A stretch of 64,000 nucleotides of DNA from Nitrosopumilus sp. (GTDB taxonomy: Archaea; Thermoproteota; Nitrososphaeria; Nitrososphaerales; Nitrosopumilaceae): NCBI GenBank assembly GCA_965203315.1, contig OZ241857.1:448001-512000 (forward strand), read 5' to 3'. The notes beneath the pieces are model-generated. The model was not told the DNA's origin. It ran no database searches and saw only the letters and a list, made by a program, of their open reading frames with translations. This document shows positions 2,989 through 52,826 of the stretch, in pieces (within the stretch, counting starts at the first letter, position 1; every line of letters begins with the position of its first letter). The translations under genes and the position numbers were made by a program.

Positions 2989-2989
2989 G

Positions 2990-5623
2990 ATGCCACAGAC
3001 CATTACAAATCCCAATGACTATTCCGTAATAGGATATCTAGACAAGAGAAAGGTACTGGCTATTCCAAATATATCTAGACAGAATCTACTAATTCTAGGA
3101 GAGATAGGCTCTGGCAAATCTAGTATACTACGACTGTTGATATATCAAGATATTGTAGCAGGTAGAGGATTCCTACTAGCAGAGAATCACTCTGAACTAT
3201 CCAGAGAGATACTGTCGATGATTCCGCCAGAGCAATACCACAAGCTAGTGTACATTAGTCTGTCATCTATAAAAAAATACGACAAGACACTACGATTCAA
3301 TCCACTAGAGATGGATGATCCTCAAGATGCAGGAATGATTGCGTTAAACTTTACCGAGTGTTTAGCAAAAGCATTTGCTGACTCGTGGGGTGCACGAGTA
3401 GAGACATGTGCTAGAAACGGAGCACTATCGGTAATAGGCACACAGAGTAATACCATAGGTGCAATGTTAAAACTACTCACAGACAAGGACTTTCGTCAGA
3501 CGTTCATACCTGAAATAGCCAACAAACAGGCAAGAGATTTCTTTTCACACGTATATGACGAACAGTATCCAAAAGAGGCAGGAGGCGTAATATTCAACAA
3601 ACTCAACAAGATGCTGACTATACCAGAAATGGATGCAATGTTTAATACGAAAAAGTCATCGATATCATTTTTGGATATCATAAACAACGGTATGTATGTT
3701 GTACTAGATTTTGGCGGACTACCAAACGATATGGTGATGTTTCTAGGCAATGTCTTTCTGCATCTATTTTATACACAGTACAAGAAACGAGCCAAGAATA
3801 GATCTGGCATATACGATACATTCAATCTGTATCTAGACGAGGTACAAATGTTCTCACCACCGATGATTCGAGAGTTACTGAATACAGTTCGTAAATACGG
3901 TATAAAGGCCACAATAGCAACACAGTCGATAACTGCAGTAGGCAAAGAACTATCAGACGAGATAACAACGCTGTGTAGAGCAGTGGCATGTTTCAGGTGT
4001 GACAATACAACAGCATATCATCTAAAGTCTATCTTGCCTATCAAACCCGAAGCTCAACAACAGCTGTCGTTTCACTATTTTTCATACTATGGAGCAGGAG
4101 ATAAACCCATACGAGCGGTAGCCAAAACTAAACACATGAACATTCCAGACACATCAGAACAAGCAAGTAAAGCAAGCGTAATGAATCTAGGTTCGTTTAT
4201 ATCTCTAGACAAGTACTATACATCACAAGGTGGAAATGCAGATGTCGTACTATCACCACTAGAGTTTGGCATACTGAATCTATTACGAATGGAGAATAGA
4301 GACATGACCAAAAACGAGATAACAGAAAAGATAACTCGTATATTTGTAACCAATCCACGCGCAATAACAAACGCACTAAACGATACATTGGTCGCTACCA
4401 ATAGATTCGTTGCAATAAAAGACGTCATGTCAGACGATGGTGATGATAAACTAGAGACTAGATACGTGATCACCAAGACAGCACATTCTAAAATATTTAG
4501 TCATGCAGCAGCAGGTAGACGCGCAGGAAGTGATCTACATCTACGTACTATATTTACCATAATGGATCTACAAACAAATCTGTACTGTTACTGTATTCCC
4601 GATCTTGGTAAAAACACATCACAGAAGGCAGACCTTGTTATATTTTCACCAAAAAAGATCAAACCCAAAGATCCAAAACAAGAGACGTTATACGGAACAA
4701 AATTCCATCCAACCGAATGGTCAGATAAAATAGTTGCGGTGGAGGTAGAGACTGCACCTAACAAACACTGGGATCAGATACACATCAACTATATAAAAAA
4801 TGAAAAGATGGGATACTTTACATGGTTTGTTGTATACGATGAGAATGCAAAACGAGGCATATATCACACACTGCAAGAACACGGTATATCTTCTCAAGAC
4901 TATTCGATACTAGTATATGACAAAAAGTCACTACTTGGCGCCGATATCTCTCTAGTTCGTTCAGATATTGAGTCGTGTATATGGAAAGTAATATTTGACA
5001 ACAGAGGTGCAACCGTACAGAATATCTGCGATTCACTAGTAGATTATGATAAATCGGATATCAAGAGAGCGATACAACACATGAGTGAAACGGGAGCATT
5101 AGAATCTAGACGGAATAAGAGTGACACAGCTGATATCTGGTGTATATCTGCAATACGTAACGCCAGTAATGATTCACTGGGTGTAGAGGCCATACCTGGA
5201 ACAACACCACAAGACAAGGAGCGATATGCAGCAACACGAGAGATATCTGACGTATCTGTCGATGTCAATCCAAATACAGTACAAGATACATCTTTGAATA
5301 TCGAAAAAATACTAGATCATCCGGTGGTTCGAACTAGACCGACTCTAGACGATCATATCTTTACAGATACACCGATATCTGATGTGCAGGACTCGCAAAC
5401 ATCTAGTTCTATCCCGGATAAAGAGTGTACAGATGCCAAACCAGACATGACAAACGTGCAGTTGCTAGAGTACTGGATCAACATACATGATCTGACTGAT
5501 CCAGAATCTCAATCAGTACTAAAGGATATTGAAGCAAAGTTGATGAACCGAGGATTAATGGTAAAATCTAGAAGAGGCAAGTTCTTTCTATCAAAGATTC
5601 CCAAAAATCAAAAGTCCAAGTAG
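2990..5623 (+). CDS. VirD4/TraD-like coupling ATPase fused to wHTH and PD-(D/E)xK-like (replication-relaxation-like) C-terminal domains
   Basis: GEIGSGKS, FNPLE, LYLDEVQ, RKYG..ATQ; C-terminal H..IPD..ADLVIF..AVEVET; ATG directly after the VirB4-like stop. Confidence 0.7.
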   Translation: MPQTITNPNDYSVIGYLDKRKVLAIPNISRQNLLILGEIGSGKSSILRLLIYQDIVAGRGFLLAENHSELSREILSMIPPEQYHKLVYISLSSIKKYDKTLRFNPLEMDDPQDAGMIALNFTECLAKAFADSWGARVETCARNGALSVIGTQSNTIGAMLKLLTDKDFRQTFIPEIANKQARDFFSHVYDEQYPKEAGGVIFNKLNKMLTIPEMDAMFNTKKSSISFLDIINNGMYVVLDFGGLPNDMVMFLGNVFLHLFYTQYKKRAKNRSGIYDTFNLYLDEVQMFSPPMIRELLNTVRKYGIKATIATQSITAVGKELSDEITTLCRAVACFRCDNTTAYHLKSILPIKPEAQQQLSFHYFSYYGAGDKPIRAVAKTKHMNIPDTSEQASKASVMNLGSFISLDKYYTSQGGNADVVLSPLEFGILNLLRMENRDMTKNEITEKITRIFVTNPRAITNALNDTLVATNRFVAIKDVMSDDGDDKLETRYVITKTAHSKIFSHAAAGRRAGSDLHLRTIFTIMDLQTNLYCYCIPDLGKNTSQKADLVIFSPKKIKPKDPKQETLYGTKFHPTEWSDKIVAVEVETAPNKHWDQIHINYIKNEKMGYFTWFVVYDENAKRGIYHTLQEHGISSQDYSILVYDKKSLLGADISLVRSDIESCIWKVIFDNRGATVQNICDSLVDYDKSDIKRAIQHMSETGALESRRNKSDTADIWCISAIRNASNDSLGVEAIPGTTPQDKERYAATREISDVSVDVNPNTVQDTSLNIEKILDHPVVRTRPTLDDHIFTDTPISDVQDSQTSSSIPDKECTDAKPDMTNVQLLEYWINIHDLTDPESQSVLKDIEAKLMNRGLMVKSRRGKFFLSKIPKNQKSK

Positions 5624-5661
5624 ATTTAGTAAATGAGCAGTATTGTATTCTCTACTTGTAG

Positions 5662-7184
5662 GAGGTTGTCCGGTGAATAGGAATAGGGCAGCTGCAAATC
5701 CACTCATCGGGGATACAAATCGCTCGATTTTGAACACATGAGAAATATTTTCTCTAATTGCATCGTTTCTAGTGTTGTTTTTTCAACTGCTGCATAGAAT
5801 TAGTAACAAGTTCTAGTTTACAATTAATTTTAAAACACAAAATAGATATCAAAATGAAAAGATCTATAAAGGGGAACTATTTTTAGAAATGTCATGGCGA
5901 GTGATTTCCCTTATTGGTTCAAGTTTCTAAAAGATGAGGACATGAATCGTAAAGAAAAACGTGAGAAAGCAAGAAATTTAAGTAGAATTATGAAATCATT
6001 AAAACATAAACCAAGATTAAGACTTTTATTTTTTATGCTTGTTTTAAGATTGGAAGACGAGGATAAATTTAAAGAAGAATTCGAAAAAGAGTTAACTCTT
6101 ATGAATAAAAATAAACGTGGTGGACAATTCCTTTATTCAGAAGCTCTTATAATGTACGCAGGCATTACAAAATCTAGAAACAACTATTCATATAGACGAC
6201 TCATAAAAGAGTTAGAGAAATCTTTTCCTAATTTCAAGATACCACGTAGATCTCAGTTACACGCTAGAATAAAAGCACAGGAAGTCGATATTTTAAACGA
6301 TCTCTTAATTATAAAGTCTAAAATGCCACATACTCTAGCTATTGATGCTTCTGGCTTTAGACAACATGCAGGTGGTCGATGGATTGAAGCCCATTACAAA
6401 GTAGAACGAGATGGATTTGTAAAAATGCACATTTGTATAGACGTGAATTCAAAGATTATAAGGTCATACAGCATTACGACTGACAAGAAATCAGATTCGT
6501 CACAGTTTAAGCAACTATTAAAAGATGCAACAGAGATAGTTGATGAATGTAATCGTACCGGTAAACCAATCACAAAGAAAATTCTCGCCGACAAAGGTTA
6601 TGATACAAAAAAGATTCACGAGTTTTGTATGATGTATAATCTCATCAATGGAATATTGATAAAACGTAATGCAGTATCACATGGAGATGATCCCAGAAGT
6701 AAATTAGCCGAGTTTCAATTTGGTGCTTTAGATGGTAAAGATCTAAATTCCATGCCAACAGACGAACGCGAAGAAAATCAAGATGATTGGAAGATAATTC
6801 TAGGATATGGAGACCGTGCAAATGTTGAAGGCGTATTTTCAACAATGAAACTCCTATTTGGTGAAGACATTAAAGCAATAAAATGGGAAAACATGGTTCA
6901 AGAGTTAAAGTTCAAGATTGCTGCACATAATTCAAAAGTAATTTTAGCACAAGTGGGTATTGAGTGGTAACCAAATACTGTTTTTTGGTAAATGCATGCT
7001 TGTCGAGCATTAATTTGTGGCGTTTTAATTAATCAAACTTGATTATTGAAGTGCAAAACGGTACACTTTGCACCAAAGTTTAACTTTTAATAGAAAAATA
7101 ACGGCAAATAGAGTTAATTTGTTGTATTTTGTTTAAGAGATCATAAAATGCATAGATTTTACGAGATATTCACCGGACAACCCC
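5662..7184 (+). mobile_element. IS5-family insertion sequence (ISH1-like)
   Basis: TIRs gaggttgtccggtgaata / tattcaccggacaacccc; 8-bp TSD acttgtag on both sides. Confidence 0.9.
5894..6970 (+). CDS. IS5-family DDE transposase
   Basis: AIDASG, KMH, ADKGYD, YGDRANVEGVFSTMK motifs. Confidence 0.9.
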   Translation: MASDFPYWFKFLKDEDMNRKEKREKARNLSRIMKSLKHKPRLRLLFFMLVLRLEDEDKFKEEFEKELTLMNKNKRGGQFLYSEALIMYAGITKSRNNYSYRRLIKELEKSFPNFKIPRRSQLHARIKAQEVDILNDLLIIKSKMPHTLAIDASGFRQHAGGRWIEAHYKVERDGFVKMHICIDVNSKIIRSYSITTDKKSDSSQFKQLLKDATEIVDECNRTGKPITKKILADKGYDTKKIHEFCMMYNLINGILIKRNAVSHGDDPRSKLAEFQFGALDGKDLNSMPTDEREENQDDWKIILGYGDRANVEGVFSTMKLLFGEDIKAIKWENMVQELKFKIAAHNSKVILAQVGIEW

Positions 7185-7215
7185 ACTTGTAGATACATAT
7201 TCGATACTTTTTGAT

Positions 7216-8136
7216 ATGCGTGTCCAGATCCAATTGCAAACAAGATTTAAAAAAACCAACGCCTCAATCTGGACTATGAGTACAAGCTCGATTATGATCG
7301 ATACCGATATAATTTACAATGAAGACTGTATTGATACAATGGCACGATTTCCTGATAACTGTATCTGCCTTGTAGTTACTTATCCTCCATATGACAACAT
7401 GAGAAAGTACAATGGTACCAGCTTCAATGAATTTGAGACCATATCTTGTGAACTATGCCGAGTGATAAAAGATGGCAGAGTTGTTGTGTGGGTTATGGGA
7501 GATCAGACGCGTAATGGAAACGAGAGTGGAACGTTATTTACATATGCCTTATTCTTCAAAGATATCGGATTTAATCTATTTGATACAATGATATATCTCA
7601 AACCGCCACATGGTGCTGTTGGTAACAACAAGACTTGTTGGCAGTCATTTGAGTACCTGTTTGTATTTTCTAAAAATAAACTAAAGACGATCAATCTATT
7701 AATTGACAGAGAGAACAAAGACTCTCGAGATGGAGATAACGGTACAAAGAGATTGTACAACGGCACCCTAAAGAGCGTAAAACGAAACGAATACGAAAAG
7801 ATGGGTAAAAGGACGAACGTTTGGGAGTACTATACTAAAAGAGGACATTCTGCAACAGACAATATAGAAGATCAACACCCATCAATATTTTCAAAAAAAC
7901 TCGCAAGAGATCACAACATGTCATGGAGCAGTAAAGGTGATATTGTATATGATCCGTTCATGGGATCTGGTACAACTACAAAGATGTGTGTCTTGAATGA
8001 TCGCAAGTACATCAGAAGTGAGTTGGATAAAAATTATTATAGAATATCAAAAAAGAGATTAAAGACTTGTCAGACCCGGACGCAACTAGATTGTATATAT
8101 TTGTCGAATTCAATAAAAAAATCCAGAGGCCAATAA
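7216..8136 (+). CDS. N4/N6 DNA methyltransferase (beta-type), catalytic motif altered
   Basis: VVTYPPY in place of TSPPY, HPSIF, DPFMGSGTT; true start probably downstream of 7216. Confidence 0.75.
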   Translation: MRVQIQLQTRFKKTNASIWTMSTSSIMIDTDIIYNEDCIDTMARFPDNCICLVVTYPPYDNMRKYNGTSFNEFETISCELCRVIKDGRVVVWVMGDQTRNGNESGTLFTYALFFKDIGFNLFDTMIYLKPPHGAVGNNKTCWQSFEYLFVFSKNKLKTINLLIDRENKDSRDGDNGTKRLYNGTLKSVKRNEYEKMGKRTNVWEYYTKRGHSATDNIEDQHPSIFSKKLARDHNMSWSSKGDIVYDPFMGSGTTTKMCVLNDRKYIRSELDKNYYRISKKRLKTCQTRTQLDCIYLSNSIKKSRGQ

Positions 8137-30014: not shown

Positions 30015-30232
30015 GGATGTAAAGATACTCCAAACAGTGATTGTCATCAATATGATGGTCCATGGCACACGTCCATCGAGTATGATCTTTTGTACATAGT
30101 CGAGTAAGTCATCAGATGGTGTAGGTAATGGCGATATGTGGAATAGTGGTATAGTGACATGACGAATTAATTTCACTATTATGTCCCTTAAAACACTAAA
30201 ATTCACGCATTGACACAATTTTTAGTGATATC

Positions 30233-30475
30233 TTGAGTACAAAACACAAAAATCTTCTTCTAGCTCTTAAAAATAAAAAGTACGCGCACATACGAACTAG
30301 AATCTTTGGTGTAAAGATGGTTCTAATTGATAAAAACACAATATCACGTACAGCAAGGCATGTTGGCAGGACGGAACGTACCGTGTATAATTGGCTAAGA
30401 CGATACAAGCGAGAAGGAATTGCAGGACTAGAAGACAAACCAGGTAGAGGAAGAAAGCCACTAACACGAGTTTGA
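30233..30475 (+). CDS. Stand-alone HTH paralogous to the IS630 transposase N-terminus
   Basis: VGRTERTVYNWL..GLEDKPGRGRKP versus transposase VGVTERTVYNWL..GLEDKGGRGRKP. Confidence 0.65.
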   Translation: MSTKHKNLLLALKNKKYAHIRTRIFGVKMVLIDKNTISRTARHVGRTERTVYNWLRRYKREGIAGLEDKPGRGRKPLTRV

Positions 30476-30479
30476 CGTA

Positions 30480-31526
30480 TTATGCAACGATCTCTCTTTT
30501 TATGAATGCCAAAAGATCGAGCGTATGTCGTGTCTTTTTTAGATAGTCACGCACAGCAGCTTCCATCTCTTCAACTGTCTCATAGTATACTCCAACTTTG
30601 ATCTCTCGTTTGAGCTGATGCCAATACTCTTCGATTGGATTGAACTCGGGTATTGCTCTTGGCAGATAGACGAGTTTGATATCCTTGCCCTTGATGAACT
30701 CTTCAACATCTTCTCCTTTGTGCGTCTTGGGACCATCGAGCAGCAGTATCACTTTTTTGAAGCGTTTGTACAGGTTTTTCAGAAACTCCAAGAAACAGGC
30801 CTTGTTTGTACTCTCTACTATCTCAAAGTATTGCACTCTACCTTGACCTATTGCCCCCATTACGATCACTTTATCACGTGACCCCTTTGAGGTAGCATAT
30901 ACAGGCCTGCCTATTTTGGTCCAGAATTTAGCACCGTTCTTGGTTTCTAACGTCAAGATTGTCTCGTCCATTGCAAACAGTTTCCAACCTTTCTTCTTGA
31001 GATGTCCATACATGGACAGTACCCTTTTACGGAATGCTTTGATCTCTGGAGGTTTAGCTCGATTTCTGTATGCCGTTTGTGAACGTTTCCTTGACCACCC
31101 TAACTTTTTCATCCTCTTTCTTATCGTATCAAAGTGTTGTTTCACACCCGTCTCGTCTAAAAGTAACTTGTACATGTCTCTAGGTGTTGTTCTTTCTTGA
31201 GTGTCTAGTATTTGCTCATATGTTTCGTCAGGTATCTTGGGTTTTCTTCCACGACCACCCTTGTCTTCCAGCCCAAAAAGAGCCTTTTCGCTAAACAGAT
31301 TGAGCCAATTGTATACTGTACGTTCTGTTACTCCAACAGATTTTGCAGCAAGTGCTACTGTACAGCCATCGACTATGATCATCTTGAGAGCTATGACTTT
31401 GTGTCGTATGTGTTGGTGTTTTCTTTTCTTAAGACCCTTCTTGAGTATTTTTCTCTGTGATCCAGACCATCGTCTGGGCGATTTAGATGTCTTTGAAGTA
31501 TTGACAGATCTCTTTTTTGATGCCAT
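30480..31526 (-). CDS. IS630 transposase
   Basis: MDET, LLDG..H, PEFNPIEEYW. Confidence 0.9.
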   Translation of the reverse strand: MASKKRSVNTSKTSKSPRRWSGSQRKILKKGLKKRKHQHIRHKVIALKMIIVDGCTVALAAKSVGVTERTVYNWLNLFSEKALFGLEDKGGRGRKPKIPDETYEQILDTQERTTPRDMYKLLLDETGVKQHFDTIRKRMKKLGWSRKRSQTAYRNRAKPPEIKAFRKRVLSMYGHLKKKGWKLFAMDETILTLETKNGAKFWTKIGRPVYATSKGSRDKVIVMGAIGQGRVQYFEIVESTNKACFLEFLKNLYKRFKKVILLLDGPKTHKGEDVEEFIKGKDIKLVYLPRAIPEFNPIEEYWHQLKREIKVGVYYETVEEMEAAVRDYLKKTRHTLDLLAFIKREIVA

Positions 31527-32490
31527 TGTAATGTCTAGAACACATTAATTCATAACTTATGATGTCAAAAATAGTTGATACTGAAATTAATTTATCTTGT
31601 CACTATAGTATCACAGATAGGCCAACAATGCATAGTGGTCCAAACCCATTGATCTTCTTCTTTATTTCCCAAGCTAGATGGCGACGTATCTTTACAGGAT
31701 CACCTTGTGATATTTCCAGTTGCGCTCTAGATATTTGATCCATAAATATGAGGTGAATGCTTTTGCCCGTATCACTCAATTGTGGTATATAATCACCATC
31801 TCTAAATGGTTTAAGATTCTTATCATGATGATTTTGCATCTGTGTGCTAAGTGATGTACATTTTACAACTATTGATTTTGTGGGCGATTCTATGATTACT
31901 CGATCTCCATATTCAACATTAATCATCTCTGTCATCTCAGAACACAGAGAGACCATGGGAATCTTACTCTCACGAAATATTGGATTTGAATGTGATCTCA
32001 TCACTGCCTTTTGATAGTTTAGACGCTCTCTGAGCATAGTTGACATCTTGTTTCTAAATCGATATAATTTGCCATGCTGTCTGTTGCTTATTGTTACTGT
32101 ATTGCCAAGGTTTAATCGTAGTGCTTCTCGATATGTCTGATCAAGTGCAACTGTCTTTCCCTCAACAACTTTGGTGTTTCTAGAATACTTGTGACTGTTG
32201 GATATACATACAGCATGTATTTTTAGTCCATTATACGTCAAGAGCACTTGGTCTCTCTCACGAATCTTTTCCTTATTCATGTCGTTTTTATGTAAGATTA
32301 TTATAAAATCACACATAGGTTGAGTCGTAACATTTGTGTGCGTTACTGTTAGTTCTAGCATCGATTCATAGTTGGCACTATCTTTTAATATAGCATATCA
32401 TGTTCAAAATTGACGATTTTGTCAAAAATACTAGACAATTGATATTAGCTCTAGTACCAGATGAACTAGGCATACAAGCGAATCTACACA

Positions 32491-33311: not shown

Positions 33312-33611
33312 TCAAGCAGATCGACTCCTGTTATCTCGTAATCGTTTATTGGTACATTTGCAGTTTCGTTCTTTGATGTGTACGACAGACTTTGAGTCTG
33401 TATCGGATTTATCATATTTTGATATTAAAAGATAGTCATCAATTTTAATCCCCAGACTAGCTAGATGCTCAATGTTATTACACAAGAATTCTAGATCATC
33501 TGCTATCTCTTTTAGTCTAGTTCGGATACGGCGCTTGTATAATTTCTTGTTTGCAGCAGACAAGACTCCTGGCGAACTGACCACTTGTCTCTCTATATCA
33601 CTTAGACACAT
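33312..33611 (-). CDS. Small basic helical protein, paralogue 1
   Basis: MCLSDIERQVVSSP..YKRRIRTRLKEIADDLEFL; overlaps the actin-like stop. Confidence 0.65.
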   Translation of the reverse strand: MCLSDIERQVVSSPGVLSAANKKLYKRRIRTRLKEIADDLEFLCNNIEHLASLGIKIDDYLLISKYDKSDTDSKSVVHIKERNCKCTNKRLRDNRSRSA

Positions 33612-34468
33612 TTTGCCTGCCTCAACATTCCTAGTGCGTTTGCAAATACTGGCTCTTTAGCTACTTGTAAATTGGATATCGTATCGTTTCTGATCTCTGA
33701 TATCAACTTTGGTATTAATGCTCCTCCGCCTGCACATATTACAGGTAGGTTTGAATAATTTAAAACGACCTTTTCTAATGCATTTGAAATCGTACCTGCT
33801 AAAACTTTACGATACTGTGCTAGCTCGTTATCTCGTCTCTGAAATACAGTACTGTCTAGATACTCTACCATCGAAGTAGATATGGCATCTGTGATATCTC
33901 CAACTCCGTTCATTATAGTCTGACCATACGCAATATCGTCTCCAATCACTACCATTATCTCGGTTGTACCGTGGCCGATATGACATACGATACCATTCTG
34001 TATATTCTCATGTATCAGAGTGGCGCGTGCTTGGTACATCATTCCAAAGAACTTTGGTTTGAATCTCTCTACAACTGCAGCCTTGATCTGTTTTGATTTA
34101 TGTCGAGCTACATAAGGTATACCTGCGACTATAATCAAATCTTCATAGCTCTTTGGAGCATTATAGATGGGTTCTGTATGCGCCTTGAGAACTCTGTCCA
34201 AGGCATGTTGTATCAGAGCTAGATAGTCTCTCATGGATGTAGGCGCACCTCTATACACGGGAGTCTTTAGAACTATGGAGCGAATCGGTTCTAGCTTTAC
34301 TGCCGCATCACCTACTGCATACACTTCACTAGATTGATTGAGATCTAGTTTGTGCCCTCTTGCAATAACTGATGGAAACTTGAACTGTTGTGTACTGGTT
34401 GCGACCTTGACAGTCCCAGTCCCAATGTCTAGTCCAACTGTATTCAGATTCAACAATCTATACAGCAA
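33602..34468 (-). CDS. ParM/MreB-like actin-fold ATPase
   Basis: Phosphate-1 GLDIGTGTVK, FPS, phosphate-2 HIGHGTTE, adenosine AGGGA, ANALG. Confidence 0.85.
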   Translation of the reverse strand: MLYRLLNLNTVGLDIGTGTVKVATSTQQFKFPSVIARGHKLDLNQSSEVYAVGDAAVKLEPIRSIVLKTPVYRGAPTSMRDYLALIQHALDRVLKAHTEPIYNAPKSYEDLIIVAGIPYVARHKSKQIKAAVVERFKPKFFGMMYQARATLIHENIQNGIVCHIGHGTTEIMVVIGDDIAYGQTIMNGVGDITDAISTSMVEYLDSTVFQRRDNELAQYRKVLAGTISNALEKVVLNYSNLPVICAGGGALIPKLISEIRNDTISNLQVAKEPVFANALGMLRQAKCV

Positions 34469-34857: not shown

Positions 34858-35553
34858 ATGAATCGTACAAAAGAATCCAAACCACAACACAGCACGGACT
34901 GTCCGACATACACACCACCAAACTGTTCACGTGCACTTCCAACAGATACCGAACCAAAACGCAATCTAATAAAATACCTGCCAATCGGTCTGAGTATAAT
35001 TGCCCTAGTATGTGCAATCGTTCTCACATATCCGAACTGGAGCGACAGCGCAACATCTCTACTAGGTGAATTCAAAGAAGGCAGTGTCTCATTTGGAGAG
35101 AGGCTTGAATCATTTGGTAGAGGAACATCAACAGCTTTTCACAACTCTTTCCTACAAGATGAATCTACAGAGATAGAATCTCCAAATGTAGACATAATCC
35201 GTGTAGGTGCAGCTGTAGTAAAACACACAGACAAACCAATAACAAACACAACAGCAGCTAGTACACTAACAAACGCAACGACAGTCAACACAGAAATCCA
35301 AACCAACAATACAAAAAACAAACAATACACAGCATCTAGTACATTTGAACAAGAGATGTACAACTGTCTTTTGCGGACAGGTGGACTAGAAGCAGTTGTA
35401 ATGTGCGAACGAGAAGGTACCATGTACTTTGTTGTGGATGAGCCCCAAGATACAGCAGTTCGATATCAGACCAATCTAACCATTGCCGATGACAGATACT
35501 TTGTCATTTATGAGCAGGGTAGAGAACAACACATCCTCGAGTTGTATCCCTAG
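34858..35553 (+). CDS. Single-TM hypothetical protein with a Thr-rich linker
   Basis: One hydrophobic segment; followed by hairpin tgcca-gtaa-tggca and a T-tract. Confidence 0.6.
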   Translation: MNRTKESKPQHSTDCPTYTPPNCSRALPTDTEPKRNLIKYLPIGLSIIALVCAIVLTYPNWSDSATSLLGEFKEGSVSFGERLESFGRGTSTAFHNSFLQDESTEIESPNVDIIRVGAAVVKHTDKPITNTTAASTLTNATTVNTEIQTNNTKNKQYTASSTFEQEMYNCLLRTGGLEAVVMCEREGTMYFVVDEPQDTAVRYQTNLTIADDRYFVIYEQGREQHILELYP

Positions 35554-35631: not shown

Positions 35632-35726
35632 AGGGGCGAGACAGGCGATGATTATTCACCCAGCACTGAGAGAGTTTGACCCCTCTCAATGATGAATCTG
35701 GCGTTGTATGAGTCCTCGAATCCCCT
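35632..35726 (+). ncRNA. Box C/D guide RNA A1 (BHB-flanked)
   Basis: C ATGATTA, guide ttcacccagca, D' CTGA, gagag/ctctc hairpin, C' ATGATGA, guide atctggcgttgt, D ATGA. Confidence 0.8.
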
Positions 35727-35767
35727 ACTTTATAATTCTCACTTTTCGCCAGATTTGGCTTTTGTAA

Positions 35768-35834
35768 AGTGAGGGCGATGATGAGAGAAACGACGTCTGA
35801 CTCTGATGGGCGTTACGATAACTGAGCCCTCACT
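35768..35834 (+). ncRNA. Box C/D guide RNA B1
   Basis: 9-bp stem agtgagggc/gccctcact, C ATGATGA, gagaaacgacgt, CTGA, C' CTGATGG, gcgttacgataa, CTGA. Confidence 0.85.
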
Positions 35835-35868
35835 GTATGTACATTTCTTCTAACTATTAACTGTAATC

Positions 35869-35960
35869 GGGCGAGACAGGCGATGATGAGACGGAGCTAT
35901 ATGAGAGGGCATAGCCCCCTCAATGATTAGAGCCTGTTAATCAGAGTCCTCGAATCCCCT
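35869..35960 (+). ncRNA. Box C/D guide RNA A2 (BHB-flanked)
   Basis: C ATGATGA, gacggagctat, D' ATGA, gaggg/ccctc hairpin, C' ATGATTA, gagcctgttaat, D CAGA. Confidence 0.8.
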
Positions 35961-36001
35961 ACTTAATAATTTTCACTTTCAGCCAGATTTGGCTTTTGTA
36001 A

Positions 36002-36070
36002 AGTGAGGGCGATGATGAGAGAAACGAAATCTGACTCCATGATGAGTTACGACTAGTCTGAGCCCTCACT
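36002..36070 (+). ncRNA. Box C/D guide RNA B2 (all four boxes consensus)
   Basis: agtgagggc-g-ATGATGA-gagaaacgaaat-CTGA-ctcc-ATGATGA-gttacgactagt-CTGA-gccctcact. Confidence 0.92.
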
Positions 36071-36105
36071 GTCTGTACATTTCTTCTAACTATTAACTGT
36101 AATCT

Positions 36106-36196
36106 GGCGAGACAGACGATGAAGAGTAAGAACTCCACTGAGAGTGTTTGACCCCTCTCAATGATGAATGAGTTGCACAGAGTCCTCGAATCCCCT
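36106..36196 (+). ncRNA. Box C/D guide RNA A3 (BHB-flanked)
   Basis: C ATGAAGA, gtaagaactcca, CTGA, hairpin, C' ATGATGA, atgagttgca, D CAGA. Confidence 0.8.
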
Positions 36197-36236
36197 ACTT
36201 AATAATTCTCGCTTGTTGCCAGATTTGGCTTTGTAA

Positions 36237-36307
36237 AGTGAGGGCAATGATGAGTGAAACGACGTCTGACATCTAGTGATGAAAGATAACCTGTCTGAGC
36301 CCTCACT
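36237..36307 (+). ncRNA. Box C/D guide RNA B3
   Basis: Stem, ATGATGA, gtgaaacgacgt, CTGA, GTGATGA, aagataacctgt, CTGA, stem. Confidence 0.9.
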
Positions 36308-36340
36308 GTTTGTACATTTTGCTAGCTATTAACTGTACTT

Positions 36341-36430
36341 GGCCGCGACAGACGATGATTATTAACTCAACACTGAGAGAAGATACTCCTCTCATTGATG
36401 AATCTGGCGTTGTAAGTCATCGAATTCACC
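36341..36430 (+). ncRNA. Box C/D guide RNA A4, degenerate (D box and BHB eroded)
   Basis: ATGATTA, ttaactcaaca, CTGA, hairpin, TTGATGA, atctggcgttg, no clear D box. Confidence 0.6.
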
Positions 36431-36470
36431 ATGTTAGAATTATCCCTTTTCGCCAGATTTGGCTTTGTAA

Positions 36471-36537
36471 AGTGAGGGCAATGATGAGTGAAACGACTTC
36501 TGACTCTGATGAGTTACGACTAGTTTGAGCCCTCGCT
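36471..36537 (+). ncRNA. Box C/D guide RNA B4
   Basis: Stem agtgagggc/gccctcgct (G-U retained), ATGATGA, gtgaaacgactt, CTGA, CTGATGA, gttacgactagt, TTGA. Confidence 0.85.
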
Positions 36538-36569
36538 TGCTGTACATTTCGTCGAGTTATTACATCTAC

Positions 36570-36666
36570 AGGGGCGAGACAGACGATGAGGATGGATAGG
36601 AAATCTGAGGGCGTTTGACCACCTCTCAATGATGAACGAATCACATTCCGAGTCCTCGAACCCCCT
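36570..36666 (+). ncRNA. Box C/D guide RNA A5 (perfect BHB)
   Basis: agggg-cgag-aca-gac, ATGAGGA, tggataggaaat, CTGA, hairpin, ATGATGA, acgaatcacatt, CCGA, gtc-ctcg-aac-cccct. Confidence 0.8.
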
Positions 36667-37285: not shown

Positions 37286-37894
37286 ATGAGCGACGAAAAA
37301 ACCAACAGACTATCTCGTAGAGAACAGATTCGCAAGTCTCTCAGAGACAATACAAAGTATACGTCGATTCTAACTGCAGGTGTATCGGCACTTGTGATGG
37401 GAGTTATGGCACTACTTGTAACTCCACCAGAACAAGATGCATATGCGCTAGCAATCATGGGAATCGGCATATCCTTTATTATCGCAAGTATCGTAGGGCT
37501 GATAATGGCATCGCAGACAGATGAGATTGCAGCTCGTATTTATGAGCGATTCGACAGACAAGATGAATTAGCAGAGAGACGTCATCAAGAGATGATATCA
37601 GTACTCAAAGAGATATCCAATAAACTAGACGCATTAGACAAGCTAGACAAGCTAGATGTCATGGATAGTAAACTGGACGTCATAGTCAACAACACCACCA
37701 AACTGGATGTCATAGTCAACAAACTAGACACCATAGACAACAACACCACCACCAAACTGGATGTCATAGTCAACAAACTAGACACCATAGACAACAACAC
37801 CACCACCAAACTGGATGTCATAGTCAACAAACTAGACACCATAGACAGTAAACTAGACACCATAGACAACAACACTAGACCATCTAATGCGTAG
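37286..37894 (+). CDS. 2-TM coiled-coil repeat protein, copy 1 (202 aa)
   Basis: Two TM helices, GISFIIASIVGLIMA..ERFDRQ, KLDVIVNKLDTIDNNTTT repeats. Confidence 0.8.
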   Translation: MSDEKTNRLSRREQIRKSLRDNTKYTSILTAGVSALVMGVMALLVTPPEQDAYALAIMGIGISFIIASIVGLIMASQTDEIAARIYERFDRQDELAERRHQEMISVLKEISNKLDALDKLDKLDVMDSKLDVIVNNTTKLDVIVNKLDTIDNNTTTKLDVIVNKLDTIDNNTTTKLDVIVNKLDTIDSKLDTIDNNTRPSNA

Positions 37895-38079
37895 CAAAAA
37901 ACCCAAAATCTTTTTTCTCGACTGAGACGTAAATCCCAAACCCGCATGGAATTTCTAATTTCCCCACACACTAGACTCAGCTAGGCAGGGTGTGCGGATT
38001 AACTGAACCATATCTCATATTCCTGTACGTATAATCTAGTTCAGAGAGTACCAGGTTGAGTGAGACAATTGAAAAAAGC

Positions 38080-38658
38080 ATGAGCGACGAAAAAACCAAC
38101 AGACTATCTCGTAGAGAACAGATTCGCAAGTCTCTCAGAGACAATACAAAGTATACGTCGATTCTAACTGCAGGTGTATCGGCACTTGTGATGGGAGTTA
38201 TGGCACTACTTGTAACTCCACCAGAACAAGATGCATATGCGCTAGCAATCATGGGAATCGGCATATCCTTTATTATCGCAAGTATCGTAGGGCTGATAAT
38301 GGCATCGCAGACAGATGAGATTGCAGCTCGTATTTATGAGCGATTCGACAGACAAGATGAATTAGCAGAGAGACGTCATCAAGAGATGATATCAGTACTC
38401 AAAGAGATATCCAATAAACTAGACGCATTAGACAAGCTAGACAAGCTAGATGTCATGGATAGTAAACTGGATGTCATAGTCAACAAACTAGACACCATAG
38501 ACAACAACACCACCACCAAACTGGATGTCATAGTCAACAAACTAGACACCATAGACAACAACACCACCACCAAACTGGATGTCATAGTCAACAAACTAGA
38601 CACCATAGACAGTAAACTAGACACCATAGACAACAACACTAGACCATCTAATGCGTAG
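38080..38658 (+). CDS. 2-TM coiled-coil repeat protein, copy 2 (192 aa)
   Basis: As copy 1, 10 aa shorter. Confidence 0.8.
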   Translation: MSDEKTNRLSRREQIRKSLRDNTKYTSILTAGVSALVMGVMALLVTPPEQDAYALAIMGIGISFIIASIVGLIMASQTDEIAARIYERFDRQDELAERRHQEMISVLKEISNKLDALDKLDKLDVMDSKLDVIVNKLDTIDNNTTTKLDVIVNKLDTIDNNTTTKLDVIVNKLDTIDSKLDTIDNNTRPSNA

Positions 38659-38843
38659 CAAAAAACCCAAAATCTTTTTTCTCGACTGAGACGTAAATCC
38701 CAAACCCGCATGGAATTTCTAATTTCCCCACACACTAGACTCAGCTAGGCAGGGTGTGCGGATTAACTGAACCATATCTCATATTCCTGTACGTATAATC
38801 TAGTTCAGAGAGTACCAGGTTGAGTGAGACAATTGAAAAAAGC

Positions 38844-39368
38844 ATGAGCGACGAAAAAACCAACAGACTATCTCGTAGAGAACAGATTCGCAAGTCTCTC
38901 AGAGACAATACAAAGTATACGTCGATTCTAACTGCAGGTGTATCGGCACTTGTGATGGGAGTTATGGCACTACTTGTAACTCCACCAGAACAAGATGCAT
39001 ATGCGCTAGCAATCATGGGAATCGGCATATCCTTTATTATCGCAAGTATCGTAGGGCTGATAATGGCATCGCAGACAGATGAGATTGCAGCTCGTATTTA
39101 TGAGCGATTCGACAGACAAGATGAATTAGCAGAGAGACGTCATCAAGAGATGATATCAGTACTCAAAGAGATATCCAATAAACTAGACGCATTAGACAAG
39201 CTAGACAAGCTAGATGTCATGGATAGTAAACTGGATGTCATAGTCAACAAACTAGACACCATAGACAACAACACCACCACCAAACTGGATGTCATAGTCA
39301 ACAAACTAGACACCATAGACAGTAAACTAGACACCATAGACAACAACACTAGACCATCTAATGCGTAG
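38844..39368 (+). CDS. 2-TM coiled-coil repeat protein, copy 3 (174 aa)
   Basis: As copy 2, one 18-aa repeat shorter. Confidence 0.8.
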   Translation: MSDEKTNRLSRREQIRKSLRDNTKYTSILTAGVSALVMGVMALLVTPPEQDAYALAIMGIGISFIIASIVGLIMASQTDEIAARIYERFDRQDELAERRHQEMISVLKEISNKLDALDKLDKLDVMDSKLDVIVNKLDTIDNNTTTKLDVIVNKLDTIDSKLDTIDNNTRPSNA

Positions 39369-44938: not shown

Positions 44939-45072
44939 CACGCCAAAGTGTAGAGACGCTATCTCTTGCGCAATCAGTATCCTACTGCATAATATCATAT
45001 GATATCACATGATATCGTACTAGGACTGCTGCTCGGCAGGATTGCATGCGAAGAGATTCTTACAAGGAGGTG
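44922..45072 (+). promoter_or_regulatory. Repeated hairpin leader R1
   Basis: tagaccaaaaggactagcacgccaaagtgtagag..atctcttgcgcaatc..ctgctgctcggcaggattgcatgcgaagagatt..ggagg. Confidence 0.7.
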
Positions 45073-45077
45073 AAAGT

Positions 45078-45674
45078 ATGAGAATAAGAAAGAGTATCTC
45101 AAACAAGATACAATCCTTTAGCGAGTCTATTGCTAAAGAGACTGTATATAGGATCGTGATGTTTGCAGGAATAGCTCTAACTGGATATGGAATTTATCTA
45201 CAAGACATAGCAATAATCATATCTGGATCAGCTTTAATAACTGCAAGTGTCATAGGTATAGTAATGTCTATGCAGACCAACAAGATTGCACATACTATCT
45301 ATGAGCGATTTGATAGACAAGATAAATTGGCGGATATGCGCCACAAAGAGACAATATCAGTACTAAAAGAGATGATGTCAGTACTAAAAGAGATAGTTAC
45401 ACTGCTAAAAGATAGCAAAGAATGTAACGAAAGAATGAGTCAAACACTAGACAGAATCGACAAAAACACAAGTAAACTAGACAGAATCGACAAAAACACA
45501 AGTAAACTAGACAGAATCGACAAAAACACAAGTAAACTAGACAGAATCGACAAAAACACAAGTAAACTAGACAGAATCGACAAAAACACAAGTAAACTAG
45601 ACAGAATCGACAAAAACACAAGTAAACTAGACAGAATCGACAAAAACACAAGTAAACTAGCTGAGAAACTGTAA
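45078..45674 (+). CDS. 2-TM coiled-coil family protein with seven LDRIDKNTSK repeats
   Basis: SD ggaggtga; ASVIGIVMSMQT..ERFDRQ. Confidence 0.8.
   Translation: MRIRKSISNKIQSFSESIAKETVYRIVMFAGIALTGYGIYLQDIAIIISGSALITASVIGIVMSMQTNKIAHTIYERFDRQDKLADMRHKETISVLKEMMSVLKEIVTLLKDSKECNERMSQTLDRIDKNTSKLDRIDKNTSKLDRIDKNTSKLDRIDKNTSKLDRIDKNTSKLDRIDKNTSKLDRIDKNTSKLAEKL
45451..45660 (+). repeat. Seven perfect 30-bp coding tandem repeats
   Basis: acagaatcgacaaaaacacaagtaaactag x7. Confidence 0.95.
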
Positions 45675-49486: not shown

Positions 49487-49627
49487 ACCAAAAGGACTAG
49501 CACGCCAAAGTGTAGAGCCTTTATCTCTTGCGTAATCAATATTCTGTGTACAATATACGATATACGATATTGTACAACAGAACTGCTGCTCGGCAGGATT
49601 GTATGTGAAGAGATTCCCTATGGAGGT
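49484..49627 (+). promoter_or_regulatory. Repeated hairpin leader R4
   Basis: Homologous to R1; inner stem gtacaatat/atattgtac. Confidence 0.7.
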
Positions 49628-49634
49628 AGGAAAT

Positions 49635-50540
49635 ATGAACAAAAATATGAATGGCTCATCAGAGCCAATACAGAACATTCGTGTTCTACCAATAAATCCG
49701 GTGGAGTTTATTCCAAGGAATGTCCCACGATTTATTGAGACTCGTAACGAGTCTGCAAGACTCCAAGTTGCAATGGAGTCAACTGATCCGCTACTTTTGG
49801 TTGGACCAAAAGGAATCGGAAAGACACTCTGCATTGATGCATTTGCAGCAAAGCTCAATGTACCGCTGATTCGATATGACTGTTCAGATGGTACGAAAAA
49901 GTTTGATCTCTATGGACGATTTACTATAATCGGACATGAGACGGTGTACAAACCCGGCATACTAGCTACTGCTATAGAGACAGCAAACCAGTTCGGTACA
50001 GCCGTTCTAGTACTAGAAGAGGTAAATGCGCTAAACGGTGCAATGCAAAAGGTACTGAACTCGCTATTAGATTATCGTCATTCGTTGATGATAGAAGAGT
50101 TGAACAAGGTGTATTCATTGAGAGATGGTGCCAATCTCTTGATATGTGCTACAATGAATCCCAGTACGTATGGTGGCACAAACGAACTGAACGAAGATCT
50201 AAAGTCTAGATTTGCCATCTGGAAGTGGAAGTATCCTGAAGAGAATGAAGAACGTGAAATACTCAACACACAAGGTATCCCAGAGTTGTTTGTAACTCGA
50301 ATGTTACAGTTTGCTCAAGATACGAGAAATACTGCAGCTGCAGGAAAGATAGAATATGCGCTATCACCACGTGATCTAGACATGTTCTTTAGACGATACC
50401 GCATATATCTTGGCAGACCAGAGTTTGGACTCGATACCGTATTTGAAGAGTGCATCTTGAACAAGTATGATGCGGCATCAGATATAGAGTATATCAACGA
50501 TCGAAGACAGTCTATATTTGGCAAGGATGTATCAAGATAA
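49635..50540 (+). CDS. MoxR/CbbQ-type AAA+ ATPase
   Basis: GPKGIGKT, VLEEVN, ATMNP, LKSRF, SPR. Confidence 0.9.
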   Translation: MNKNMNGSSEPIQNIRVLPINPVEFIPRNVPRFIETRNESARLQVAMESTDPLLLVGPKGIGKTLCIDAFAAKLNVPLIRYDCSDGTKKFDLYGRFTIIGHETVYKPGILATAIETANQFGTAVLVLEEVNALNGAMQKVLNSLLDYRHSLMIEELNKVYSLRDGANLLICATMNPSTYGGTNELNEDLKSRFAIWKWKYPEENEEREILNTQGIPELFVTRMLQFAQDTRNTAAAGKIEYALSPRDLDMFFRRYRIYLGRPEFGLDTVFEECILNKYDAASDIEYINDRRQSIFGKDVSR

Positions 50541-52285
50541 TGTCTGTTATGATAGAGCGATATGAAAAAACTGCAAATATAGTAAACAACATCAAAGGTA
50601 CCAAGTTTACTCTACTGTGCGGTGATGGTAGAGATATCTTGTGGAAGAATAGCGAGATCATGATAACTGACAAAGATACACTGACCAATCTAGAGCACTC
50701 ACTAGCTCACATCATGTATGATTCTAGAGCACCAACAAACAGTACAATCATCGAGATAACAAAGACAGATCAAGGACATGATGGCTCGGCATTCTTTAAG
50801 GAGATATTCTATACACTAGAAGCAGAGCGAGTCGAGAGTAATTGGGGTGAGATATACTATGGTTCACATCAAGAGTTTGAACGACAGAGAAGTGAACGTG
50901 GTACAATGGATAGTGGTGAACTCGATCCAATGCGTGCAATACAGTTTGCTAGAAACGGTAGTATCGGCAAACTAGAGGGTACACAGTACGAGCAAGCCAT
51001 ACAATACATCAATACTGTACACGGTATGGACAGCAAGGTATCACTCAAGCTTGCCATAGAATACTATGAAAAATATGTCAAGGATTGGCTAGATGTACAA
51101 ATATCAAAGATACGAGAAGAGCATTTAGAGAAACTCGTACAGAGAATAAAAGATCACTTTGAAGAACAGATAGAGGAACAAAAGAGAGAGCTAGATAGAA
51201 CTGGAGATAAAAATGTACGGAAACGCATAAACGAGTTGTACAAAGACATGAGCAATACAATAGAGAACAAGACCATACATGACATACGCATATCTAGCTG
51301 GGATGTAGAAAATATCTTGAAAGACTATTCGACGAGAACACGTCAGGAATGTCATGAGAATAGTCCTAAAAAGTTGTCCAAGAGTACTGTACAAAGTATT
51401 CAAAAGAGAGATATGGACTCTTTGGTCAAACAAGGCAAGAAAGCAACTGCAAAGATCAATAGTAAGATCAAAGAGATCAATCGTCCTGTACAACCCAAAC
51501 TTGCAAACCTTGCAGAAAAGATACATGTCTCGAATAGACCTGAAGAAGAATATACCATAGATTATGAGACATCATACAGATTGCGCAAGTTGATCAACGA
51601 GGTTAAAGCAAGTCGTACACAAGTATACGACATGCAAGGAAATATGATAGATGTTGATGAGTATATCCAAGATATCATCAATACCAAACAAGGTATCTAT
51701 TGGGAAGACGAAGAACCTAGTAAGGGACTAGCTATTGTAATTGGCATAGATTGTTCAGGTTCTATGCCAGATGGTGCAATGCAGGCTTGTCGAGACATGT
51801 GTGCTACAATACTATACGCAACCCAGCGACTCAAAGATGTAGCAATAACATTTGTACCATGGAGTACAAGTAACAGTCGACACGATTTGTACGCCAACGA
51901 GTTTACGACACTAGACGAGATCAAATGCATATCAAAGAACTATGAGCCACAAAATGCCAATGATCTAGCACATCAATATCTAGACAGAGTCATCGCGAAG
52001 AGCAATGCCGTAAATAAAGTCATCATAATGATGACTGATGGTGAACCATACTGTCATGGAATAGATCCAAATGTGCTCTTTGCAAATACTGTAGAAGCAA
52101 TAAGACAGAGTAAGTTGAGAGGCAATCTAGTGTATGGCGTATTTCTGAACTTTGGCGCCAACGAAGATAGGGCAAAAAAGATGGCAGGCATGTATCGTAG
52201 TAACTTTGTATCGTGCAATACAATGAACGATGCAAGCAAGGCTGTCATCGAACTGACCCAGAATCACATCTTGAGAGCTATCTAG
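50540..52285 (+). CDS. vWA-domain partner of the MoxR ATPase
   Basis: MIDAS DCSGSM, MTDGEP; N-terminal HSLAH..EAERVE. Confidence 0.85.
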   Translation: MSVMIERYEKTANIVNNIKGTKFTLLCGDGRDILWKNSEIMITDKDTLTNLEHSLAHIMYDSRAPTNSTIIEITKTDQGHDGSAFFKEIFYTLEAERVESNWGEIYYGSHQEFERQRSERGTMDSGELDPMRAIQFARNGSIGKLEGTQYEQAIQYINTVHGMDSKVSLKLAIEYYEKYVKDWLDVQISKIREEHLEKLVQRIKDHFEEQIEEQKRELDRTGDKNVRKRINELYKDMSNTIENKTIHDIRISSWDVENILKDYSTRTRQECHENSPKKLSKSTVQSIQKRDMDSLVKQGKKATAKINSKIKEINRPVQPKLANLAEKIHVSNRPEEEYTIDYETSYRLRKLINEVKASRTQVYDMQGNMIDVDEYIQDIINTKQGIYWEDEEPSKGLAIVIGIDCSGSMPDGAMQACRDMCATILYATQRLKDVAITFVPWSTSNSRHDLYANEFTTLDEIKCISKNYEPQNANDLAHQYLDRVIAKSNAVNKVIIMMTDGEPYCHGIDPNVLFANTVEAIRQSKLRGNLVYGVFLNFGANEDRAKKMAGMYRSNFVSCNTMNDASKAVIELTQNHILRAI

Positions 52286-52308: not shown

Positions 52309-52426
52309 TAGACCAAAAGGACTAGCACGCCAAAGTGCAGAGCCGTTATCTCTTACGCAATCAATATCTCATTTGAGACCATGGCTCGATGGGATTGCGT
52401 ATGTGGAGATTCTCACAAGGAGGTGA
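52309..52426 (+). promoter_or_regulatory. Repeated hairpin leader R5 (variant loop)
   Basis: Same flanks; tacgcaatc/gattgcgta stem with a different interior. Confidence 0.65.
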
Positions 52427-52430
52427 AAGT

Positions 52431-52826
52431 ATGAGAATAAGAAAGAGCATCTCAAACAAGATACAATCCTTTAGCGAGTCTATTGCTAAAGAGACTGTAT
52501 ACAGGATCGTAATGTTTGCAGGAATAGCTCTAACTGGATATGGGATTTATCTACAAGACATAGCAATAATCATATCTGGATCAGCTTTAATAGCTGCAAG
52601 TGTCATAGGTATAGTAATGTCTATGCAGACCAACAAGATTGCAGGTAATCTTTACAATCGAATTGACAAACAAACTGCACTCTTGGAATCAAGCCTCAAC
52701 AAGATGGTTGCTGTACTAGAACGAATGGACAAGAAACTGGACAAATTAGACACAATAGATACAAAGCTGGACAAATTAGACACAATAGATACAAAGCTGG
52801 ACAATATAGACAAGAAAATGGACTAG
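52431..52826 (+). CDS. 2-TM coiled-coil family protein
   Basis: N-terminus nearly identical to the 45078 protein; different KLDKLDTIDT tail. Confidence 0.8.
   Translation: MRIRKSISNKIQSFSESIAKETVYRIVMFAGIALTGYGIYLQDIAIIISGSALIAASVIGIVMSMQTNKIAGNLYNRIDKQTALLESSLNKMVAVLERMDKKLDKLDTIDTKLDKLDTIDTKLDNIDKKMD

Follow-up and report, generated by a model that had tools for sequence, protein, structure and literature searches.

An array of predicted box C/D guide RNA genes aimed at ribosomal active sites on an accessory, conjugative-element-like region of an ammonia-oxidising archaeon

Why should an archaeon carry, on a region of its genome that looks mobile, a regular array of short repeats whose variable segments read as antisense to its own ribosome? 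The question arises from a stretch of 64,000 nt from Nitrosopumilus sp. (NCBI GenBank assembly GCA_965203315.1, contig OZ241857.1, positions 448,001 to 512,000 of the forward strand), here called the window, in which Tandem Repeats Finder (TRF) reports at 35666-36636 a repeat with a period of 234 nt, 4.1 copies and 75% matches. The original prediction held that this repeat carries guides against the decoding site of 16S ribosomal RNA (rRNA) and the head of the small subunit. Our analysis suggests that the locus very probably consists of nine rRNA-directed archaeal box C/D guide RNA genes, arrayed on an accessory region that resembles an integrative and conjugative element (ICE), and that they are functional. 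The host genome (2.47 Mb, 7 contigs) encodes archaeal AmoA, hence the host is an ammonia-oxidising archaeon, and it also encodes fibrillarin, Nop5 and L7Ae.

TRF and parsing of the individual units delimited the array at 35633-36665 on the forward strand and resolved nine box C/D small RNA (sRNA) genes in the order A1 B1 A2 B2 A3 B3 A4 B4 A5, with two different box C/D sRNA-like genes, an A type and a B type, in each 234-nt repeat. The B units (B1, 35769-35833; B2, 36003-36069; B3, 36238-36306; B4, 36472-36536; all forward strand) are 65-69 nt long and composed of an 8-bp terminal stem, a box C of sequence ATGATGA, a 12-nt spacer and a box D′ of sequence CTGA, followed by a linker of 3-7 nt, a box C′ TGATG(A/G), a further 12-nt spacer and a box D CTGA. 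All eight B spacers measure 12 nt. B1 is a canonical C/D sRNA (fold z = −3.61), and B4 is a copy of B2 with a TTGA box D and one change in the stem. The four B units all fold with the terminal stem at z-scores of −3.6 to −3.75, which were equalled by 0-1 of 200 shuffles. Across 27 distinct homologues this stem was 94% paired with 22 double-change cells, a level reached by none of 500 shuffles, the alignment of the 27 units having been fitted to a covariance model and being biased towards pairing in consequence.

The A units (A1, 35633-35725; A2, 35869-35959; A3, 36106-36195; A4, 36341-36429; A5, 36571-36665; all forward strand) are about 90 nt long, with a box C (G/A)CGATGA (GCGATGA in A1), a D′ box CTGA (ATGA in A2), a C′ box TGATGA (TGATTA in A2) and a conserved GAGAG...CTCTC hairpin between D′ and C′. 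Their C-D′ spacers span 14-15 nt and their D spacers 10-12 nt, and box D is reduced to NNGA (ATGA in A1, CAGA in A2 and A3, CCGA in A5). A4 is a decaying copy of A1 that has lost box D (now AAGT) and has a damaged terminal stem. Taken together, the units have the boxes, stems, guide spacers and rRNA matches, and the host the protein machinery, by which box C/D sRNAs are recognised at the sequence level; the end boxes are exact in B1-B3, TTGA in B4 and present in the A units in variant form only. A TATA-like octamer read by eye at 35729-35736 (forward strand), about 40 nt 5′ of the B1 stem, is repeated ahead of B2 and of B3. The octamer may be an archaeal promoter, and its placement before B1-B3 suggests co-transcripts of a B unit with the following A unit.

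Do the spacers of these units really address the ribosome? Host rRNAs were located with Rfam models, and the nucleotide opposite guide position five, counted upstream from box D or D′ (N+5), was mapped with MAFFT onto rrsH and rrlH of Escherichia coli K-12 MG1655; nucleotides given as a letter and a number, such as G1494, follow E. coli numbering. The motifs on which the original prediction was built are present where they were described. GTTACGACT was found at 36046 (B2) and 36513 (B4) with its complement in host 16S rRNA at 1440, and B1 contains a shorter form, GTTACGA, at 35812; TCTGGCGTTG was found at 35697 (A1) and 36403 (A4) with its complement at 922; and GAGTTGCA was found at 36170 (A3) with its complement at 1272 and, in addition, in host 23S rRNA at 855. 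Every one of these motifs sits in a spacer of 10-12 nt with a D-type box at its end, and alignment to the K-12 sequences returned the same N+5 nucleotides as had been proposed, namely G1494 for B2/B4, C970 for A1/A4 and A1319 for A3.

Exact Watson-Crick (WC) runs against 16S and 23S rRNA of at least 9 nt occur in 7 of the 16 distinct guides, and runs of at least 10 nt in 4 of 16. Shuffled guides average 0.84 and 0.17, respectively, and the observed counts were reached in 0 of 2000 shuffles and by 0 of 498 equal-size random chunks of the genome; antisense and reversed rRNA controls gave 0 matches, the guides fitting rRNA in the antisense orientation only. We also collapsed related guide copies into 11 families and allowed each shuffled family its best member. 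A WC run of at least 9 nt over N+5 was then found in 5 of 11 families (1 of 3000 shuffles gave as many) and a run of at least 10 nt in 4 of 11 (0 of 3000). The matches are thus clearly better than those of shuffled guides, and rRNA stands as the target. The proposal had relied on independent matches of 8-10 nt; collectively these lie far above the shuffles, while matches of 8 or 9 nt are not significant singly. As a positive control, a conserved chromosomal sRNA of the host (C5:253432-253497) showed equal match quality, with 10 WC pairs starting from guide position 2.

Guides to the decoding site had been proposed on the basis of the G1494 match, which holds, while the strongest support comes from the D′ guides, which had been overlooked. 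The D′ guide of all B units pairs over 7-11 bp with 16S 1361-1371 and places C1407, the partner of G1494, at N+5 (B1, 35785-35796, 9 WC; B2, 36019-36030, 7 WC; B3, 36254-36265, 10 WC and 1 G-U; B4, 36488-36499, 9 WC). The D guide of B2 (36046-36057) forms 9 WC pairs at guide positions 4-12 with 16S 1440-1448; since pairing spans positions 4 to 12, N+5 (G1494) lies within the duplex. The D guide of B4 (36513-36524) has the same G1494 target, that of B1 (35810-35821; 7 WC and a G-U) is shifted by 2 nt in register relative to B2 and points to C1496, and that of B3 (36283-36294) is an orphan. Shifts of 1-2 nt between guides of Pyrobaculum paralogues are known (PMC6009581). As the D′ guide addresses C1407 and the D guide G1494, both strands of helix 44 (h44) are addressed by one B unit, at sites 77 nt apart. 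Dennis et al. (PMC4644070), in the part of their paper used here, name C1407 and G1494 together as the pair at the top of h44, list G1494 as a predicted target in Methanococcus maripaludis and A1408 in two other archaea, apply a 9-bp criterion, and define double guides, which they describe as chaperones, by two targets within 100 nt. Judged by their guide sequences, the B units fit this double-guide definition.

For the head of the small subunit the picture is divided. The D guide of A1 (35696-35707) forms 10 WC pairs with 16S 922-931 and has C970 in helix 31 (h31) at N+5, and the D guide of A4 (36402-36413) is the same; this part of the proposal stands. The D guide of A3 (36168-36177), only 10 nt long, pairs with 16S 1272-1280 in helix 42 through 8 WC and one G-U (A1319), but it pairs better, over all 10 guide positions, with 23S 855-864 (9 WC and a G-U), so that the head is represented by h31 only. 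Nor is the guide set confined to 16S rRNA, as two guides target 23S rRNA: the D guide of A2 (35930-35941; 10 WC with 23S 2542-2551) has A2451 at N+5, and the D′ guide of A5 (36590-36604; 10 WC with 23S 2605-2614) has C2515. N+5 is WC-paired in every strong match. The six orphan families are the D′ guides of A1/A4 (A1, 35652-35665), of A2 (35887-35900; 9 WC and 2 G-U with 23S 639-649, with a G-U at N+5) and of A3, and the D guides of A3, A5 (36636-36647) and B3.

Outside the array, the conserved chromosomal sRNA used as positive control has a D′ guide with 10 WC pairs to 23S rRNA and N+5 at C2510. Its box D in the genus is ATGA, which means that a variant ATGA box D is in use in this lineage. 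A strict full-architecture pattern found 5 loci genome-wide, 3 of them being B1-B3. Genome-wide scans for single guides had no power, either with 9-mers (271 antisense matches against 285 and 263 in controls) or with 10-mers (65 antisense matches against 57, 48 and 49 in controls); the 65 include 4 within the 1.1 kb of the array, and the scan did pick up the conserved chromosomal sRNA.

A covariance model of the B units matched 55 of 100 genomes of the genus, mostly with one weak match that corresponds to the conserved chromosomal sRNA. A few larger genomes hold many B-like units (8 in G106, 5 in G078, 4 in G099), and G090 carries an array of at least 10 B-like units with periods of about 205-257 nt. 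Beside the G090 array lie tandem repeats of 225 and 297 nt (locus L039, G090:C2:112000-131000; 3185-3945, 4998-5974 and 6956-7787), whose units are not C/D-like at first sight. The A-type model, applied to 100 genomes of the genus, recovered the five A units and one weak match (G070) only, which makes this scaffold appear nearly unique to the present genome. Among 26 units from relatives, 23 could be parsed and were matched to the rRNA of their own genome, or to that of the present host (G000) for G007 and G101. The h31 site is addressed in G078, G090, G099, G007 and G101, A1969 and A1919 of 23S rRNA in G106 and G078, and A2451 in G090.

The A2451 guide was followed further with a scaffold-independent pattern of C′ box, 9-nt guide core, two free nucleotides and box D. 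Of 151 genomes of the genus, 5 contain this pattern, which is built into at least three different scaffolds and always has A2451 at N+5; the reversed pattern gave 0 of 151. The register is the same in 5 of 5 genomes, and the two nucleotides next to the box vary. In G112, G161 and G036 another scaffold carries the pattern, immediately 5′ of an IS240-like transposase gene, and the B-like sRNAs of G009 and G099 are likewise located beside an IS240-like transposase gene. In these five loci (L010 in G009, L043 in G099, L302 in G112, L305 in G161 and L306 in G036), three of which carry the A2451 guide, a single C/D sRNA gene lies about 60-300 nt from IS240/rve-type transposase homology, at about 60-150 nt in four of them; sRNA and transposase homology share a strand in L010, L302 and L305 at least. 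Such sRNAs may be passengers or leaders of the insertion sequence (IS). The two IS240-like transposase genes of the window itself have no sRNA upstream. Beyond the genus, a 14-base box pattern proved too unspecific in genomes and viral contigs, with unrelated bacteria and viruses among the matches listed; a longer box pattern was found in 0 viral contigs, and the three metagenome contigs that contained it encode unrelated, GC-richer sRNAs and share no genes with the locus.

How has the array itself evolved? Across repeats 1-4, guide columns are 52% identical (159/304) compared to 84% (908/1083) in all other columns, intergenic ones included, from which it follows that guides turn over faster than the intergenic spacers. 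Repeat 4 is a duplicate of A1 and B2 and is degenerating. A metagenome contig (run X4) joins position 35747 to 35982 and lacks exactly one 234-nt repeat; it may represent a copy-number variant of the array or an assembly collapse. Could the repeats then be decayed, non-functional sRNA-like sequences, in which complementarity is left over from one ancestral sRNA of a host? The visible degeneration of repeat 4, the 6 of 11 families that are orphans and the unit absent from the metagenome contig would fit such a view. We nevertheless consider it very unlikely, given that five guide families match five rRNA sites at the correct distance from a box, that guides diverge faster than intergenic spacers yet still hit rRNA, and that guides of identical specificity are found on other scaffolds in other species.

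We favour an array of guides in use. The RNAs are predicted to be transcribed and cut back to their terminal stems, and then to assemble with L7Ae, Nop5 and fibrillarin of the host, whereupon the 10-12 nt guides would pair with nascent host rRNA and fibrillarin would 2′-O-methylate the nucleotide at N+5. In 16S rRNA the predicted sites are C970 in the P-site loop h31 and, in the decoding helix h44, C1407 on one strand with G1494 and C1496 on the other (925, 1364, 1441 and 1443 in host numbering); in 23S rRNA they are A2451 and C2515 in the peptidyl-transferase region (2544 and 2608 in host numbering). Each B unit would hold both h44 strands at once and might thereby also act as a folding chaperone. 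The array would have grown by tandem duplication with fast turnover of the guide segments and decay of the fourth repeat. Transcription, assembly of the ribonucleoproteins (RNPs), methylation and a benefit to host or element are what we infer from the sequence.

Several observations weigh against guides of this kind. Of the sequencing runs compared with the array, the one presumed to be RNA (X9) gave no match to it, and the other three consist of contigs. The A units deviate from the consensus in box C ((G/A)CGATGA), in box D (NNGA) and in their C-D′ spacers, which have 14-15 instead of 12 nt, and A1 and A3 do not fold better than their shuffles (z = 0.25 and 0.09). Rfam gave no match at the gathering score in the whole window; the best sub-threshold C/D score was 26.7 bits at a cut-off of 45, and many such scores fall on B units. 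The archaeal C/D families of Rfam are species-specific. The D guides of B2 and B4 are mismatched at positions 2-3, 6 of 11 families have no convincing rRNA target, and a search of 18 guides against 40 host transfer RNAs (tRNAs) gave no target above chance (best run 7 nt, equalled by at least 96 of 300 shuffles). Across genomes, h31 is hit at four registers (A969, C970, G971 and C972). Finally, the 2′-OH of A2451 is a critical catalytic group (PMC13215694, citing Erlacher 2005 and Lang 2008, as given in the section consulted); its methylation should harm catalysis, which makes a guide that methylates A2451 a paradoxical prediction, and its register is nonetheless conserved in five genomes.

These points lead to the question whether the guides methylate at all. 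The original prediction had raised binding in place of methylation for B2/B4. The same guides could bind rRNA with some or all of them not directing methylation; by holding h44, h31 or the peptidyl-transferase loop, they would serve as chaperones of assembly, or as antisense RNAs with which the element modulates ribosome biogenesis. We regard this as a possible, if rather unlikely, reading, which overlaps with methylation guides and does not exclude them. It would account for pairing that begins only at position 4 in the D guides of B2/B4 and at positions 4-5 in related units of G101 and G090, for two guides of a B unit that cover both strands of one helix, and for the differing h31 register among genomes, which is compatible with selection for binding as well as for a fixed methylation site. 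The need of catalysis for the A2451 2′-OH (PMC13215694) points in the same direction, and so do the chaperone roles that Dennis et al. (PMC4644070) propose, in the part cited, together with double guides of which only one site is methylated. On the other side, all eight B spacers have exactly 12 nt, a length that matters for the geometry of methylation and not for simple antisense, the A2451 register is fixed in 5 of 5 genomes while the two nucleotides adjacent to the box vary, and N+5 is never mispaired in a strong match.

Two conjugation-type ATPase genes lie at 1156-5623 on the forward strand (open reading frames (ORFs) 1156-2988 and 2918-5623; TraG P-loop/HerA-like and TraG-D_C), corresponding to the VirB4/HerA-like and VirD4/TraG-like ATPases expected of an ICE. 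The region is accessory, being missing from close relatives: among 40 genomes of the same genus that are at least 95% complete, 3 share anything with the 20 kb around the array, and then no more than stretches of 200-470 nt at 65-70% identity; for the DNA of the array, a match of 77 nt in one of 60 relatives was all that was found. The window further encodes at least 8 DDE transposases, numerous DNA methylases and restriction genes, a ParB-HTH protein, a weak ArdC-N match and a staphylococcal-nuclease-like protein, and a weak tyrosine-recombinase match (22.3 bits, below cut-off) lies 35 kb upstream of it. ARAGORN found no tRNA genes in the window. The surrounding region looks like a conjugative element and the window looks mobile.

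Upstream of the array and divergent from it, a gene on the reverse strand (33602-34468) encodes an actin-fold, MreB/ParM-like ATPase (Pfam MreB_Mbl, 28.9 bits at a cut-off of 27), and between the two lies an ORF of 231 aa (34858-35553, forward strand) with one hydrophobic helix, which belongs to no Pfam family and is not Nop-like. Homologues of the actin-like protein with 45-56% identity (tblastn) are encoded directly beside, and divergent from, sRNAs in G007, G101, G106 and G090. Such a conserved linkage in four other genomes raises the possibility that the array is a centromere-like or iteron site for its ParM/actin-like neighbour and that the rRNA matches are incidental. We consider this highly improbable, because G007 and G101 have a single sRNA and no repeat array beside the actin-like gene, boxes and stems are conserved, and the variable parts match rRNA far above chance.

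Some further features of window and host were recorded. Just 3′ of the array (37286-39368), three paralogous ORFs of 202, 200 and 182 aa follow one another in tandem; they contain repeats of 54 and 21 nt, and ORFs at 45042-45674 and 52389-52826 are related to them; their Pfam matches are weak and of coiled-coil type. An IS with a DDE_3 transposase at 30150-31609 has 3 full-length and 2 partial copies elsewhere in the genome (98-100% identity), and at 49599-52285 a gene for an AAA_5 (MoxR/dynein-like) ATPase precedes one for a VWA-domain protein. Outside the window, host 16S rRNA carries at positions 776-791 (G000:C1:296644-296659) a 16-nt insertion that forms a small hairpin and is absent in G106 (pairwise alignment, 97.2% identity overall); the 16S gene is 1487 nt long in the host and 1471 nt in G106 and four other congeners.

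But what would an element gain from guides to the active sites of the ribosome? The C1407-G1494 pair of h44, the P-site loop h31 and the A2451 2′-OH are classic pockets for antibiotics and toxins. We speculate, as a tentative idea that may well prove wrong, that conjugative and IS elements of ammonia oxidisers carry exchangeable guide cassettes that hijack host fibrillarin to rewrite ribosome active sites, for protection or for control of the host. If true, such a cassette would be a horizontally transferable, RNA-programmed ribosome-protection or host-control module and not a housekeeping modification system. The locus and its relatives beside actin-like and transposase genes would be a case of guide RNA genes travelling on conjugative and insertion elements, with guides that diversify within a tandem array, which suggests that horizontal transfer can bring in patterns of rRNA modification. 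Where a mesophile has few guides on its chromosome, most of its guides may come from an element. The A2451 guide would imply either that the catalytic 2′-OH can be methylated in vivo or that C/D RNPs serve something other than methylation.

How does the array compare with known systems? With the archaeal box C/D sRNAs of Sulfolobus, Pyrococcus, Pyrobaculum and Methanococcus it shares the C/D′/C′/D boxes, the terminal stem, 12-nt guides that pair over at least 9 bp with conserved cores of rRNA, pairs of targets no more than 100 nt apart and a predicted need for L7Ae, Nop5 and fibrillarin. It differs from them in its regular 234-nt arrangement of two alternating scaffold types, in its location on a conjugative-element-like accessory region of a mesophilic ammonia oxidiser on whose chromosome very few canonical sRNAs were detected, in the variant terminal boxes and D′-C′ hairpin of the A units, and in one guide with the catalytic A2451 at N+5. 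What is new is a tandem array with two types of unit in regular order, a set of active-site targets that recurs, and carriage on such a region, with relatives beside IS genes, in a mesophilic ammonia oxidiser; these would be the first clearly mobile guides of the rRNA-methylation kind. Our literature search returned no description of C/D sRNAs from ammonia oxidisers, nor of any carried by archaeal plasmids, viruses or ICEs, the terms 'sRNA', 'actin' and 'ParM' occur 0 times in a survey of thaumarchaeal mobile genetic elements (PMC6563490), and a search on A2451 O-methylation and archaea yielded no report of Am2451 in the portions of text it returned.

Among eukaryotes, plants, yeast and trypanosomes have clusters of tandemly duplicated C/D guide genes with diversifying guides, as is the case for the array described here. 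Those clustered polycistronic small nucleolar RNA (snoRNA) genes, named in a passage of PMC12045711, are chromosomal and not horizontally mobile. TIGR-Tas systems (Faure et al. 2025; PMC12045711, in the sections cited), evolutionarily linked to box C/D RNPs, share with the array tandem dual-guide units, box C/D-like motifs and a location on mobile elements, a common TIGR site, and one might ask whether our locus is a TIGR-like guide array for a DNA-targeting Nop-domain effector. We give this idea hardly any credence. A TIGR unit has about 36 nt, with repeats of 8-12 nt and spacers of 9 nt, targets DNA and has a Nop-domain Tas protein of its own, and nothing of this was seen here; the present array has a 234-nt period, full K-turn boxes and guides of 10-15 nt (12 nt in the B units), and within a unit the two guides are complementary to one and the same strand of rRNA rather than to the two strands of DNA. 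The sole genome-wide match to the Pfam family Nop (PF01798) is the Nop5 of the host (C1:1871476-1872108), and the two ORFs flanking the array match neither Nop nor any other Pfam family, at the sensitivity of Pfam.

The nearest precedent are the sRNAs of Pyrobaculum calidifontis that resemble miniature inverted-repeat transposable elements (Lui et al. 2018; PMC6009581, in the part cited), which are likewise C/D-like copies associated with mobile DNA and with regions of genome instability. The P. calidifontis copies are dispersed and have orphan or tRNA guides, whereas the genes described here have strong guides to rRNA and stand in an ordered array, which a conjugative-type element carries, or, in relatives, lie beside IS transposase genes. 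Conceptually, the arrangement stands between dispersed snoRNA-type guides and TIGR arrays.

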